Assembly: GCA_963813715.1 (NCBI GenBank)
Contig: CAWFAK010000005.1
Span: forward strand, 1,440,001 to 1,504,000
DNA: 64,000 nucleotides
Reading direction: 5' to 3'
Origin: an uncultured Planctomycetaceae bacterium
GTDB taxonomy: Bacteria > Planctomycetota > Planctomycetia > Planctomycetales > Planctomycetaceae
In this document: one piece after another, positions 43,709-48,802 of the stretch
Numbering within the stretch: position 1 is the stretch's first letter
Layout: each line of letters starts with the position of its first letter
Made by a program: the position numbers and the translations under genes
Notes under the pieces: model-generated
Databases searched by the model: none
What the model saw: the letters and a program-made list of their open reading frames with translations, nothing else
What the model was told of the DNA's origin: nothing

Positions 43709-45412
43709 ATGTCCGAGCGAAATGGGAATGGGCACATGCCCGAAAGTGGGGCGGCGGTTGGGGATCGGGTTAATGGCGAGACGCCGGCGGTCAGGCCCGA
43801 TTTGACCGATGCCCAGCGGGCGGAAGCTGTTCTGGAATGGGATCGCCGCTTCGAGGAGGCGCTGGTCGAGGTGCGGGCCAATTACGATCCGCAGGCTGAG
43901 GCAGCCAAGCTGGAGGGCCAGCCGGAGCCTGTGCGCGCCGGCCTCAATCGGCTGCGGGAGCTGGTCGTGCCGCCGAAGAAAGAGTTTCGGCTCTTTTCGG
44001 CCGCCCAGCTCAACTCGGGGCAGTACGAAACTCGCTATCTGGTCCGCGGCATTCTGGCGGCCGGGCAACCGGGAGGCATTTTCGGCGCCTTTAAGACGCT
44101 CAAAACGTCGCTGGCCGCCGACTTATTGATCTCGATCGCCAGCGGCACTCCCTTCCTCGGCCGCTTTCCCGTGCCGCAGCCGGGCCGCGTCCTCTTTCTC
44201 TCCGGCGAATCGGGGTTGCCCGCGCTGCAGTCGATCGCCCGGCGGATCTGTGCCGAGCGCGGCCTGTCGCTGGAAAAACTCGACAATTTTGTCCTTTCGC
44301 CGGACTTGCCGCGGCTGGACCTGAGGTCCGACGTCGCGGCGCTCAAAAAACTCATCGAAGCCGAGCGGCCCGTCTGCGTGGTCATCGATCCGGCTTATCT
44401 CACGCTCGGCGGTGACAACGGCCGCAACCTGTTCGCGATGGGCTCGCTGTTGCGGCCGCTGGCCGAACTCTGCGAATCGACGGGCTGCACCGTGCTCGTC
44501 GTGCATCACTGCAAACGCTCGCAAAAAGCGGGCGACCCGGCCACGCTCGACGACATCGCCTGGAGCGGCTTCGCCGAGTTCTCGGCCCAGTGGCTCCTGG
44601 TGTCCCGTCGCCGCCCCTTCGATCCGGCCACCGGGCACCACGAGCTGTGGCTGGGCGCGGGCAGCCGCGTCGGCAACCACGGCCTGTGGGAACTCGACGT
44701 CGACGAAGGCCGGCCGCACGAATTCTCGCTCGACGTTCGGCCCCACGGCCCGGTCGATGGTCCGCTCGACGATTCTCTTGCGGGCGAACACCGCGTCTGG
44801 AAAACGACCCTTCGCCCGGTGGCCGCGCTGCAACGGCAACTCGACGCGCAGTTCGTCGCGGCCAGCGAAGACCGCCGCCTCCGCCGCCGGGCGGCCACGT
44901 TCGACCGCCAAAAGCAACGCGTGCTCGAATTCCTCTCCGCCCACCCCAACGGCTGCAACGCCACCCAAATCCGCGAAGTGCTCGGCTTCAACGGCAACCG
45001 AATGAAACGGCTCCTGGACATGCTCTGCGACGACCGGCTCGCGCGGACCGAGGAAATCTACCACGACCGGCGGAAGGAAATTCTGTACCACCGCGTGCAG
45101 GTCATGGATCTATCCGCCACCGCCATCCAATCCAACCGCGTCAGCCCAGTCGATGAAATGAAGTACGAGGTCCGGTCCGGACACTTTGTCGATCGACCGG
45201 CAGCGGGACCGGACGACCGACGCCCACCCACGCCGCTGAACGCCGTCTCGCCGGTCAACGCGAGTTCCCCCCTTCGCCCACCGATTACCCGCGGCGAACA
45301 GCAACCGGTTCCCCAAAACGCCCTAACCGCACCGGGTGCAGGGGCGTTGCCCCTGCCCCTGCCGGGTCCGGACACTTTTGTGGGAATGGGGACCGACGCG
45401 GACCGGACGTAG
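43709..45412 (+). CDS. RecA-fold AAA_25 / RepA-like ATPase (helicase) with putative C-terminal wHTH
   Basis: YLVRGIL..GQPGGIFGAFKTLKT (Walker A variant), FLSGES, VVIDPAY (Walker B), LVVHHCKR; HTH-like VLEFLSAHPNGCNATQIREVLG. Confidence 0.82.
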   Translation: MSERNGNGHMPESGAAVGDRVNGETPAVRPDLTDAQRAEAVLEWDRRFEEALVEVRANYDPQAEAAKLEGQPEPVRAGLNRLRELVVPPKKEFRLFSAAQLNSGQYETRYLVRGILAAGQPGGIFGAFKTLKTSLAADLLISIASGTPFLGRFPVPQPGRVLFLSGESGLPALQSIARRICAERGLSLEKLDNFVLSPDLPRLDLRSDVAALKKLIEAERPVCVVIDPAYLTLGGDNGRNLFAMGSLLRPLAELCESTGCTVLVVHHCKRSQKAGDPATLDDIAWSGFAEFSAQWLLVSRRRPFDPATGHHELWLGAGSRVGNHGLWELDVDEGRPHEFSLDVRPHGPVDGPLDDSLAGEHRVWKTTLRPVAALQRQLDAQFVAASEDRRLRRRAATFDRQKQRVLEFLSAHPNGCNATQIREVLGFNGNRMKRLLDMLCDDRLARTEEIYHDRRKEILYHRVQVMDLSATAIQSNRVSPVDEMKYEVRSGHFVDRPAAGPDDRRPPTPLNAVSPVNASSPLRPPITRGEQQPVPQNALTAPGAGALPLPLPGPDTFVGMGTDADRT

Positions 45413-45443
45413 GTTTGCGGATCCGGAATCGTTGATGTCAGGC

Positions 45444-45536
45444 ATTGGGTGGCACTGGCGGCTTGTCCGCCAGTGTCTTCTGATGGGCAGCGCGACGGAC
45501 CCAAGACACTGGCGGACAAGCCGCCAGTGCCACCCA
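45444..45536. repeat. Inverted pair of palindromic REP-like repeats
   Basis: TGGGTGGCACTGGCGGCTTGTCCGCCAGTGTCTT and its exact reverse complement at 45503-45536. Confidence 0.88.
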
Positions 45537-45605
45537 CGACCACGTCTTGGCCAAAAGAAAATCCGGGGCTTCCGCAAAGCAGAGCGCCCGGCCATCTATG
45601 AGAAG

Positions 45606-45869
45606 GGTAGCGTCAAGGGTTGGTTTTTGCGTTTGAAGTGGTGATCTGGGCGATGCGGTACGCTCAACCATCTATTCGGGATCACCAACGGTCTGGAACA
45701 GGTCCGTCGATGTCGCCAGGAAGCCGACTTTCGAGAGACGCCCCATTCACCCTTCGAAGGTCGCTCTTGTCATGGAACGCCTTCATGGCCGGGGGCGGGG
45801 TCGTCTGTGGGTCGTCGCAGCGCTTTGGATCGATTCTTTGGTGGGTGCTCTCCTGCCCAAGCTCGGGAT
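45606..45869 (-). ncRNA. Candidate bridge/seekRNA of the IS110-family element
   Basis: 3' non-coding region with stems flanking short segments that match the reconstructed target and donor junctions (see findings); RNA ends unknown. Confidence 0.6.
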
Positions 45870-46889
45870 TCAAGTGGGTTGCTGGCTGACTGAGTAGGGT
45901 TGGCCCGTCTTCAAGATCGCTGTCATCAGGCACAACAACCGGCGGGCCACGGCGACGATCGCCTTCTTGGCACGCACGCGCAACTTCAATCGTTCATAAA
46001 TCCGACGCCAACGTAACGAGTGCTGAACCAGCCGCCAGGCGGCTTCGACCAGCGTCGAGCGCAGCAGCGTCGAACCGTTCTTCTCCAGGTGCAGCTCCCG
46101 ACTCTTGCCCGCACTCTCGCGTTGACCCGGTGAGAGCCCCGCGTAAGCGACGACCCGCTTTTGCGAACCGAAGCGATCAATGTCTGCCAGCTCGGCCAGC
46201 ACAACTTCGGTGGTCACGAAGCCCACTCCGGGGATCGTCCGCAACAGCGTCCGCGCTTCCTGCTCGCGAAGCGGCGCTGCCTCGGCGAACTCCTTCAGCC
46301 GGGCGTTGACGGCCAGCAGCTGACGCCTCCCGAAGTGCAACTCTTCGACCATTTGATCCACGGCGAACCGATCCGCTCCCGAGAGGGGCACTTGGGCGAG
46401 ATACGCCAACCCCTCCACGGTGAACAGACTGGGGCGATCCGCGTTGTAGTCGCAGAGAATGCGGCGCAGACGGTTCTTGACGGAGGTCAATCGCCGTTGA
46501 ACGCCGCCCCGCTGACGCACCAGTCGTCGATGCTCATGCTGCCGCGGAGTCGCGCGGTAAGACGTCGGAATCATGTCCAGAGCCAGGAACTCCGCGAGGA
46601 TTTGCGCGTCGAGCCGATCGCTTTTACGCGTGCTCTCGGCAATCACACGCAGCTTCTTCGGGTGGGCCAACAACACGCGATGGGCCACGGGCTCGATCAA
46701 TCGCACGAACCATTCGTAGCTGGCGGTCGCTTCCACGACAGCCTCGAACTCCCCGAGCCTCTCGAAAAATGCGAGGATGGTCCGCTCTTCGCCACAACGC
46801 ACGGTCCGACGCTCCAAAACCCGCCGCGATTGGTCGACGACGCAAATCGTGATAGTCTGCTTGTGTAGGTCGCAGCCGGCAAATTTCAT
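45870..46889 (-). CDS. IS110 family transposase
   Basis: MKFAGCDLHKQT, VVEAT, KSDRLDA (DEDD domain); LRTIPGVG, YAGLSPGQRESAG, KKAIVAVARRL; AAGGA RBS. Confidence 0.95.
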   Translation of the reverse strand: MKFAGCDLHKQTITICVVDQSRRVLERRTVRCGEERTILAFFERLGEFEAVVEATASYEWFVRLIEPVAHRVLLAHPKKLRVIAESTRKSDRLDAQILAEFLALDMIPTSYRATPRQHEHRRLVRQRGGVQRRLTSVKNRLRRILCDYNADRPSLFTVEGLAYLAQVPLSGADRFAVDQMVEELHFGRRQLLAVNARLKEFAEAAPLREQEARTLLRTIPGVGFVTTEVVLAELADIDRFGSQKRVVAYAGLSPGQRESAGKSRELHLEKNGSTLLRSTLVEAAWRLVQHSLRWRRIYERLKLRVRAKKAIVAVARRLLCLMTAILKTGQPYSVSQQPT

Positions 46890-47066
46890 GGCGGTGTCCT
46901 TTTGTGGAAACGGTTTGCAACAAACTCCGTTTACCACGTTCAAGCACAACCACCAACCGGCTCGGCCTACCTCTTACCGCTCCTCATAGCTTCACCCGTC
47001 GCGTAGTCCTGTAGTTTCGTAGGACAAGCTGGCAGCTTGTCCTGCGTGCGGGCACGGGACCAGCGG

Positions 47067-48802
47067 ATGGTCCGGTCGCGGCCGCCGGGAAAGACGCCGC
47101 AAATGGCCGGGTTCCAGGCTCGTCTCCCCAAGAATCGGGTTTCCGGCTACCCTTCCGCCACGATGCGATCCGACCAGCGATATGTGGTTCGGGAGGCGAT
47201 CCGTCGCCAGCAGGGGGAACCGGTGGGAGAACCTGTCCGGGAACCGCTGCGCCGCGACGCGCGCGAATACGGGCGATACGAGGACGAGCAGCCGCCCCGC
47301 CGCGAAGTCCGGGAGTACCAGCAGGGCGAATATCGCGAACCGGCTCCCCCGTATCGCGAGCCAGCTCCGGGCTACCCCGAACCGGCTCCAGCCTATCGCG
47401 AACCGCCGGCCGGTTATCGCGAGCCCCCAGTCACTTACCGCGAGGTGGGCGCCACTTATCGTGAGGCGGGGCCGGTTTATGCTCCCCGTCCGGCACCCCC
47501 CTATTCCGAGCGCCTGCCTGACGAGTCGTATCGCCGCCTCCGCCGCCTCCGCCGCCCCCTCCCCGTCCGGCGCGGCCCCTGTATTCGGTGCGCGAGGCGG
47601 ACCCTTACGGTCGCCGCGAGATCCGCTCATCCTACCTGGCTCAGCCCCAGGAGGCGGGATCCGCATATGGACCCGGCGAGTCGGCGCGTCGTCCAGTTCG
47701 CGAGCGGACGGCACGTCGCGAGGAGTGGCAAGCTGCCGAGCAGAACGAAAACGAAGAAGACTCGACCGATCAGCCCACCGCTCCGGCCTGGTTTGCCGTC
47801 TCGCGAGCGACCGCCTTCTTTGTCGGTTGCGTGACCCTGTTGGCCCTGCTGGGCGAACTGCGGTTTCCCAACTTCTCAGCCGGCGACTGGTGGATCGATC
47901 TCGCGCCCTTGCCGAAGGCGGCGTCCCGCGGCGTGCTCGGCCTGTCGGCCGCATTTCTGATTGTGTTTGCGTTCTTCCCGCGGGCCAATGGATTCATTCG
48001 CCGTTGTGGCGGGCTTTGCACGATGGGCCTGCTGGGAGCGGCCGGTTGGAGCGTTTACCGGTATTACCACGTCGCTCACGCGGGTCAAAGCTTCCACGAT
48101 TTGCCGGTCCCCTTCGCCCTGCATGTGGTCGCCCTGCTCTTCGTCGTGTTGCCCGGGCAGCTGACCGGCTGGTGGGAGCGAACGAACTTTTTCAAGGACG
48201 CTTTCGTTGGGATGGTGACGCTGGCCACCTGCGTGGTCAGTTTTCCGCTGGCGAACTTCGCCTGCGTCGGCCTGCTGGATGATCGAGCCGGCATTGATCC
48301 GGCTCAAGGTGCTGCCGCCGTGGTCGTCGCCGGGCGGGCAGACGCCGAGAAAATCGCCGGCGAGAAACCGGACCGGAACCCGTTGCAGGCGGCGTGCCAG
48401 CTCTATCGCGAGGGGCAGGTCAAACAGCTGTTGCTCGTTCCCCGGTCGGGCGAGACAGGCGGCGCCGAGGAAACGCTGCAGTCCCTGCGACGGGCCGTTT
48501 TAGACCAGGGAATTCCCGAGGCCGATATCCTGTCGCCTCCAGGTGCTCCGGCCGCTTCCGCAGATTCTCGTGCGATGCTGGGCGAGACGGCCAAATTTCT
48601 CGACGCACAGAAGTTGCCGCATGTGCTGATCGTCGCCCGGTTTTTCGAGGTGCCCCGGATTAAGCTCAGCCTCCAGCGGGCCGGGCTCGACGTGCATGCC
48701 GCACCGATTCGCGAGGACGTGCGGACCCCTCAGATGCGGCCCGTGCTGGCCCGCGAGGGGATGGCCTTCTGGCTGTGTTACCTTCAGCCGGTGTTAATGT
48801 AA
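47067..48802 (+). CDS. Membrane protein with N-terminal YREP repeats and a degenerate DUF218/YdcF-like domain, frameshift ~47530
   Basis: Repeat-rich N-terminus, ~5 TMs, then AVVVAG, ACQLYREG, QGIPEADIL, VLIV...PR, LAREGMA pattern. Confidence 0.65.
47331..47477 (+). repeat. Coding 21-bp tandem repeat, 7 units (YREPAPx)
   Basis: YREPAPP YREPAPG YPEPAPA YREPPAG YREPPVT YREVGAT YREAGPV. Confidence 0.85.

Follow-up and report, generated by a model that had tools for sequence, protein, structure and literature searches.

The RNA-guided recombinases of IS110 and IS1111 elements are under development as genome-editing tools that work without a double-strand break. In the IS1111 elements described by Siddiquee et al. 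(2024, PMC11187229), the guide RNAs, termed seekRNAs, are encoded 3' of the transposase gene and carry the match to the top strand 5' of the match to the bottom strand, which is the reverse of the IS110 type. These seekRNAs occur in a short form of ~80 nt and a long form of ~150 nt. For ISEc11, a short RNA lacking the 3' half was enough for transposition, and the role of the long form is left open in that account (PMC11187229). Durrant et al. (2024, PMC11208160) give 93% as the share of IS1111 elements with a predicted bridge RNA in the right end, and place the donor-binding bases often in a multi-loop rather than in an internal loop.

The window analyzed here, a stretch of 64,000 nt from the genome of an uncultured soil bacterium of the Planctomycetaceae, harbors an insertion sequence that belongs to the IS1111 group as defined in those reports (PMC11187229, PMC11208160), because it has subterminal inverted repeats and a longer non-coding region downstream of the transposase gene (275 nt, 45869-45595) than upstream of it (105 nt, 46994-46890). 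Its main parts are the following.

45595..46994, minus strand: insertion sequence of 1400 bp, with one copy of the TG/CA core counted (equally 45593-46992)
45593..45594, no strand: right-end junction copy of the core dinucleotide, CA (TG as read on the transposase strand); second copy at 46993-46994, both junctions carrying it in all eight copies
46980..46989, no strand: left-end arm of the subterminal inverted repeat, CTATGAGGAG on the minus strand, matching the other arm at nine of ten positions
45596..45605, no strand: right-end arm of the subterminal inverted repeat, CTATGAGAAG on the plus strand
45870..46889, minus strand: intact transposase gene, 339 aa, within the IS1111 range of 330-350 aa
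45563..45592, plus strand: REP-like hairpin unit, its 3' foot being the target; on the other side, CCC lies at 46995-46997

A DNA search of the window's own genome showed that it carries eight copies of the element with 96-100% identity, together with six further short matches to the left flank only, which are uninterrupted REP-like units. The first and last bases are identical in all eight copies (...GCCA|TCTATGAG...CTCATAGCTTCA|CCC... on the plus strand), and each copy is inserted between ...GCCA and CCC..., that is, into one sequence, in one orientation and with no target duplication. The flanks in the window read ...GCGCCCGGC on one side and CCCGTC... on the other; when rejoined they read GCGCCCGGCCACCCGTCGCGTAGTC, one base off the GCGCCCGGCCACTCGTCGCGTAGTC found in L009, an empty paralogue of the whole neighborhood. 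This uninterrupted paralogous site confirms the ends of the element. The ends and CA core proposed in the initial annotation are therefore those of all copies, junctions and the empty site, and the search for other copies defined no different ones. Rejoined flanks are the same as empty sites, in keeping with the specific, duplication-free insertion that characterizes IS1111 elements, and the inverted-repeat arms, set 1 and 3 nt in from the core, fall within the 7-17 bp given for the group.

The target is associated with a repeat family. The REP-like unit has the form CCGGGGCTTCCGC...GCGGAGCGCCC(C)GGCCA, and 33 such units were found genome-wide with a strict pattern. Six of the eight copies lie at the 3' foot of a unit, while the other two (L007 and L008) occupy non-REP sites that are nonetheless compatible with the guides described below. 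Unoccupied CCGGCCACCC sites number 57 in the genome and just seven of them are in REP units, yet REP units hold six of the eight copies. This preference is attributable to the REP sequence extending the match with the 10-nt guide, which reaches nine of ten positions there. The element accounts for eight repeats of this genome located in a REP-like family; four of these repeats have retained a coding frame.

Other features surround the element. Close to the REP unit, on its left, is a perfect 34-nt inverted repeat with a 23-nt spacer (window 45446-45536); genome-wide, 83 occurrences of its arm were counted at no more than four mismatches, and in metatranscriptome runs the repeat is found on many separate contigs with high summed depth. 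It looks like a second, abundant family of palindromic repeats. To the right of the element is a 14-nt inverted repeat (window 47018-47046) whose GGACAAGC motif is common to the large palindrome on the opposite side. An Rfam search of 45000-47500 with E values up to 1 returned no bridge RNA or seekRNA family, the sole match being a sub-threshold microRNA model on the flanking palindrome. The product of the upstream gene (window 43709-45412, plus strand) has 567 aa and combines an AAA_25 domain with a weak match of MarR type, an architecture that is frequent in mobile-element replication or primase-associated proteins.

The transposase contains the Pfam domains PF01548 (E 3e-15) and PF02371 (E 6e-23), and scores 223 bits against a cutoff of 140 with the NCBIfam model NF033542, 'IS110 family RNA-guided transposase'. 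Comparison with the solved recombinases of IS621 and ISCro4 gave a significant match over the C-terminal half only (E about 1e-13; 1.4e-13 for IS621). Residues D7, E53, D91, D94, G251, P254, S259 and G261 are invariant among 16 homologues, and by analogy D7, E53, D91, D94 and S259 would be the catalytic residues. The GL-P----S(t)G motif reads GLSPGQRESAG, in which SA replaces SG or TG. The reading frame is intact in four of the eight copies, including that of the window, and in the other four it stops at residue 197 or 237. Among plasmid-borne relatives in PLSDB, none exceeds 34% protein identity to the transposase. The transposase clade was found, at E <=1e-40, in 30 of the 301 genomes searched from the same family; the phylum had been called little sampled, which does not describe Planctomycetota particularly well.

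A total of 98 homologous loci were collected. A scan of species genomes contributed seven (Planctomycetaceae, Planctomyces and Pirellulales), and a metagenome scan with the 16-protein alignment contributed 80 more. The sequences 3' of the stop codon align well across loci, and RNAalifold predicted three helices on 18 as well as on 36 sequences. The structure was fixed at 30 pairs in these helices (P1, P2 and P3) and scored on the 36-sequence alignment, where 89.7% of cells are paired compared with 77.2% in shuffles. Changes on both sides were found at 23 of the 30 pairs; none of 500 shuffles reached any of the five measures used, and sliding the partners by 1-3 columns as a control lowered pairing to 33-47%. 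A covariance model built from this alignment (R1) gave 93 matches in 92 of the 98 loci, and in the six loci that lack a match, the sequence past the stop codon is no longer than 167 nt. A search with the filters off took R1 to seven planctomycete loci with more distant transposases (33-35% identity); five of them gave a significant match in the 3' region (E 3e-9 to 2e-7), and the other two (L045 and L051) gave none at E <=0.01. The only enterobacterial element tried, an IS110-family element of an E. coli plasmid (L132), was unmatched under the same settings (best E 1.9). The RNA predicted for the window is laid out as follows, from its 5' end.

45653..45809, minus strand: predicted bridge or long seekRNA core, 157 nt, matching R1 with 122.5 bits, E 1e-32 (L022:1281-1437)
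45796..45806, minus strand: helix P1, 5' strand AGACGACCCCG, pairing with UGGGGCGUCU at 45745-45736
45786..45795, minus strand: predicted 5' target guide CCCCCGGCCA, complementary to the top strand (transposase orientation) at the core TG and the flank beyond the right end
45756..45784, minus strand: helix P2, 45784-45775 pairing with 45766-45756 around the loop 45774-45767; contains GAAGG/CCTTC
45748..45752, minus strand: predicted 3' target guide GGGUG, with the sense of the three flank bases that precede the left end and of the core TG
between P1 and the hexamer, minus strand: conserved linker
45719..45724, minus strand: candidate donor guide for the left end, the hexamer GCUUCC, complementary to left-end bases 2-6 (GAAGC)
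45677..45718, minus strand: helix P3, with a conserved base UGGCGAC/GAUCCCG and a variable hairpin on top
45669..45675, minus strand: candidate right-end donor guide AUAGAUG, in the sense of the five final element bases and of the core
45668-45655, minus strand: conserved tail GUUGAGCGUACCGC
45611..45616, minus strand: conserved TTGACG box, 16 nt inside the right end, of which TTGAC is conserved in the homologue alignments

Two variations in this layout were seen among the homologues. About half of them (L065, L066, L072, L096, L129 and others) contain a further conserved module, ~150 nt long, that separates the donor block from the TTGAC box, so that the stretch from P1 to the right end is ~366 nt instead of ~215 nt. 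One metagenome contig (L088) gave two R1 matches on opposite strands, which represent two related element copies within 1.8 kb.

The initial annotation had picked its guide candidates from the window alone, naming four strings on the minus strand, all of which are present: CCCGGCCA (45793-45786), GAAGGGTG (45755-45748), ATAGATG (45675-45669) and CTTCA (45638-45634). To estimate chance levels, the 275-nt non-coding region was simulated 20,000 times with a first-order Markov model. They were 0.015 for CCCGGCCA and 0.006 for ATAGATG, compared with 0.10 for a 7-of-8 match to GACGGGTG, 0.12 for GGGTG and 0.23 for CTTCA. Two of the four matches (the 7-of-8 match of GAAGGGTG, and CTTCA) are thus unremarkable on their own; the homologues rescue GGGTG and do not rescue CTTCA. 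Single-sequence folds did not surpass shuffles (z -0.12 and -1.38); in the fold of minimum energy, P3 is absent and a non-conserved TGGTGATC/GATCACCA helix is favored. Given such folds and chance levels, the question of the guides could not be settled from the sequence of the window by itself.

The target module consists of an internal loop between P1 and P2, with two guides that read opposite strands as in the IS621 type. P1 has 98.3% of its cells paired and changes on both sides at five of ten pairs, and P2 has such changes at all ten of its pairs; the GAAGG/CCTTC stem noticed in the initial annotation is a part of P2 and shares in these compensatory changes. The CGCCCC/GGGGCG outer stem proposed alongside it was half right. 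Its 3' strand is that of P1, but the 5' partner was misplaced: the outer stem is GACGACCCC/GGGGCGTC, and it is in GACGACCCC, at 45805-45797, that the compensatory changes occur (for example, one pair changes from C-G to U-A in three sequences, and two others from G-C to A-U in 8-11). With GACGACCCC as the 5' strand of the outer stem, the whole of CCCCCGGCCA is left unpaired as a guide.

Guide columns were taken from the R1 alignment and element ends were located by conserved end motifs, which gave 92 loci, 81 of them with a right end and 74 with a left end. The 5' guide was scored with two registers allowed, in controls as well. It pairs with the right-end flank at a mean of 8.5 of ten positions, whereas non-cognate pairs reach 4.5 of ten (72 unique pairs from 80 loci), and the guide of the window pairs with its own flank at nine of ten. 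When guides differing at more than three positions were treated as separate clusters, the mean over 25 clusters was 7.88, which none of 10,000 permutations of the flanks attained. Two of the 25 clusters (L029 and L098) pair at three of ten positions only, and the guide region of L098 has an insertion and is misaligned. The 3' guide behaves similarly over a shorter stretch. Its three core-adjacent positions equal the flank in 90-96% of 69 unique pairs, even though 19-22 of these guides are non-G at each of the three positions, and agreement falls to ~50% at the next two positions outward; over 19 clusters, the observed mean was again beyond all 10,000 permutations. Both target guides therefore covary with the flanks over ~90 loci. 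The covarying unit contains the whole of CCCGGCCA as part of the 10-nt CCCCCGGCCA, while of the 8-mer GAAGGGTG the GGGTG portion covaries and the remainder is not used consistently. The match to the top strand lies 5' of the match to the bottom strand and the two overlap at the insertion point, which is the guide order of IS1111 elements. We consider it nearly certain, from this comparison of guides and flanks, that both predicted target guides are real.

The treatment of the core within the guides varies in two respects. Guides that end in ...CUG pair one base further out than those that end in ...AUG, and the first core base is then left unpaired. In L028, L030, L059 and L062, which represent three independent insertions of one guide type plus L030, the right-end junction carries TA and the 5' guide ends in UA, while the left-end junction carries TG and the 3' guide ends in UG, so that the guides disagree on the second core base. 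This mismatch between junctions hints that only the first core base must match. In the window, UG is the last dinucleotide of both same-sense guide segments, and CA that of the 5' target guide.

The 3' half of the RNA carries two segments that relate to the ends of the element itself. Position 2 of the GCUUCC hexamer faces left-end position 5 as T-A in 43, C-G in 16 and A-T in two of 74 loci, and position 3 faces left-end position 4 as T-A in 66 and G-C in four of the 74; at positions 1, 5 and 6, pairing is just 39%, 72% and 64%. The segment AUAGAUG is present as ATAGATG in 89 of the 91 loci aligned there, and L099 has ATGGATG. Two loci, L039 and L040, have a CG core at both junctions, and there the donor guide reads AUAGACG and the 3' target guide reads GGCCG. 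Because AUAGAUG and the right end both barely vary, the link between them comes from this core change in one lineage. Together with its low chance level, the change sustains the earlier proposal of ATAGATG as the donor guide for the right end. The second donor guide proposed there, CTTCA (45634..45638, minus strand), proved to be a chance match: a 5-mer complementary to the core and the left end, counted at any place in the tail, which cannot be aligned between homologues, was found in the equivalent tail of seven of 69 homologues compared with three of 69 on the control strand. The segment that covaries with the left end is instead GCTTCC at 45724-45719.

The hexamer and AUAGAUG flank P3 directly in all aligned homologues, and the internal order of this donor module is that of the target module. 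P3 (45718-45677) is itself conserved, with changes on both sides at seven of nine pairs and 86.6% of cells paired. The donor guides had been drawn around a TGGTGATC/GATCACCA stem; that stem was the choice of the single-sequence fold, overlaps the 3' strand of P3 and has a partner segment that is not conserved. No helix that would close the donor module in the manner of the IS621 donor loop was found, the candidate partner columns being invariant. A donor-reading role for this module appears somewhat more probable than its absence, judging from the covarying positions. Near the right end, the TTGACG box may possibly serve as the -35 element of a promoter formed at the circle junction; in the circle it would be followed by a 17-nt spacer and then GAAGCT, which would be a poor -10 element.

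The ends, the target, the helices and the covariation between guides and DNA were observed directly, and they make it highly probable that this IS1111-group element pairs an IS110-family DEDD recombinase with a downstream structured RNA of ~155 nt in the role of a bridge or long seekRNA. By analogy with published relatives, the non-coding region would be present as RNA bound to the recombinase, and circle formation and chemistry would follow those systems. In the proposed mechanism, the 5' loop strand CCCCCGGCCA would pair with the top strand, at the core TG and eight bases beyond the right end, and GGGUG would pair with the bottom strand of the three bases before the left end plus the core. 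The target guides would thereby specify insertion at ...GGG-TG-GCCGGGG..., the foot of a REP-like hairpin. The donor segments, with GCUUCC complementing the start of the left end and AUAGAUG sharing the sense of the right end and core, would keep the joined ends of an excised circle in place, and recombination at the shared TG would insert the element with no target duplication. The mechanism is the one published in 2024 and is not new; the element is a well-supported further example, and some novelty is limited to the covariation set, the donor module and the oddities of core and register.

Three other explanations of the matches were weighed. The matches could be due to chance, with the protein recognizing the REP hairpin when it chooses a site. 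GGGTG and CTTCA are indeed expected by chance at the levels given above, and six of the eight copies are in a hairpin-forming repeat, but the covariation between guides and flanks over 25 and 19 independent clusters, with 0 of 10,000 permutations in each case, already contradicts this explanation, and L007 and L008 lie outside REP units at sites that nevertheless fit the guides; it can hardly be credited. The guide segments might instead act as DNA, for instance by pairing as single-stranded DNA in the manner of IS200/IS605. Flank covariation on its own does not distinguish RNA from DNA, and the contigs from public runs described below indicate presence and not transcription. However, G-U pairs are conserved on the transposase strand, in 36 of 36 sequences at two positions of P1 and P3, and these would be C-A mismatches if read on the other strand. 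In addition, relatives co-purify with RNA of the non-coding region and the RNA works in trans in the experiments of Siddiquee et al. (PMC11187229), and the NCBIfam model itself is named 'RNA-guided transposase'. Action as DNA is very improbable on these grounds. A narrower role is also conceivable, in which the RNA, as a seekRNA in the strict sense, guides the target only, the protein reads the donor ends through the subterminal inverted repeats, and GCUUCC and AUAGAUG are scaffold or protein-binding motifs. This would agree with the 82-nt ISEc11 RNA, which supported transposition without the 3' half in an account that leaves the role of the long form open (PMC11187229), with the near invariance of AUAGAUG and the right end and their little covariation, with the poor pairing of hexamer positions 1, 5 and 6 (39-72%), and with a donor module that has no closing helix. 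Against it, several lineages show joint changes of hexamer positions 2 and 3 with left-end positions 5 and 4, respectively (C-G 16, A-T 2 and G-C 4 against a T-A majority), AUAGACG accompanies the CG core in L039 and L040, and both donor segments abut P3 in all aligned homologues. We regard restriction of the RNA to the target as unlikely.

The family may work as described while the copy in the window is an inactive relic. This copy carries ~20 substitutions that are absent from the other seven, located at 45826-45891 and 45768-45772, and four of the eight copies are already frameshifted. Public runs that contain most of the element number 20, from 16 studies, and six of them are metatranscriptomes; the element is shown by them to be common in soil data. 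In the four runs examined (three RNA and one DNA), one contig per run extends from about 45561/45587 to 46997-47048, stopping at or near the element's ends, and all four carry the majority variant of the other seven copies and not that of the window. No circle-junction or excision joints were seen in the contigs of these three RNA runs and one DNA run, which report presence only. Conversely, the window copy keeps an intact reading frame of 339 aa, nine of ten positions of its flank pair with the 5' guide, and its guides and helices are identical to those of the other copies, the private substitutions being clustered in the last codons, the leader before P1 and the P2 loop, with none in guides or helices. 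Recombination with a diverged relative may have introduced them as a patch. That the window copy is a relic thus seems somewhat unlikely, and the element is real and probably active, with a well-supported predicted guide RNA. The overall proposal of the initial annotation, an intact IS1111-type recombinase with a TG/CA core and a guide-bearing 3' non-coding region, is borne out by the eight copies, the empty sites and the covariation of guides with flanks.

The planctomycete clade offers a natural series of at least 25 differently programmed guide/target pairs on one conserved scaffold. This series shows the pairing rules directly, with one side using 10 nt and the other side 3 nt in addition to the core. 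The clade also lends comparative support to a donor-reading role of the long IS1111 RNA, the point left open in PMC11187229. The chances appear even that the unexplained 3' half of the IS1111 'long seekRNA' is a donor-binding module, which would make it a true bridge RNA of two specificities, with an open three-helix layout and nearly all target specificity in one 10-nt guide. If so, two short donor guides, 5' and 3' of a conserved hairpin, would read the top strand of the left end and the bottom strand of the right end with the core, and the other side of the target would contribute only 3 nt plus the core.

Among the systems closest to the element are the IS1111 seekRNA elements ISEc11, ISPa11, ISKpn4 and ISPst6 as described by Siddiquee et al. 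(PMC11187229), with which it shares the long downstream non-coding region, the subterminal inverted repeats, orientation-specific and duplication-free insertion and the order of the guides. Its transposase has the same length as that of ISEc11 (339 aa), its target is a REP element as for ISPa11, and its target module of ~70-80 nt inside a conserved RNA of ~155 nt parallels the short and long seekRNA forms. It differs from the elements in that account in its planctomycete host, in being known from sequence where theirs come with biochemistry, and in the covariation of the 3' half of the RNA with the element's own ends. Like the bridge RNA of IS621 (Durrant et al. 2024, PMC11208160; PDB 8wt6), a single RNA is predicted to read both strands of target and donor around a 2-nt core; both elements have a target-binding internal loop between two helices, a REP target, and a recombinase with a DEDD domain and a serine-bearing C-terminal domain. 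Unlike in IS621 as described there, the RNA is encoded 3' of the gene and not 5' of it in the left end, the guide order is reversed in both modules, the putative donor guides flank a hairpin and not an internal loop, and the left target guide has only 3 nt plus the core. Comparable in layout are the predicted bridge RNAs of ISCARN28, ISAzs32 and ISPa11 (PMC11208160), which likewise lie in the right end and have donor bases outside a simple internal loop; those predictions were inspected by hand on one element each, whereas the structure presented here draws on covariation across ~90 loci.
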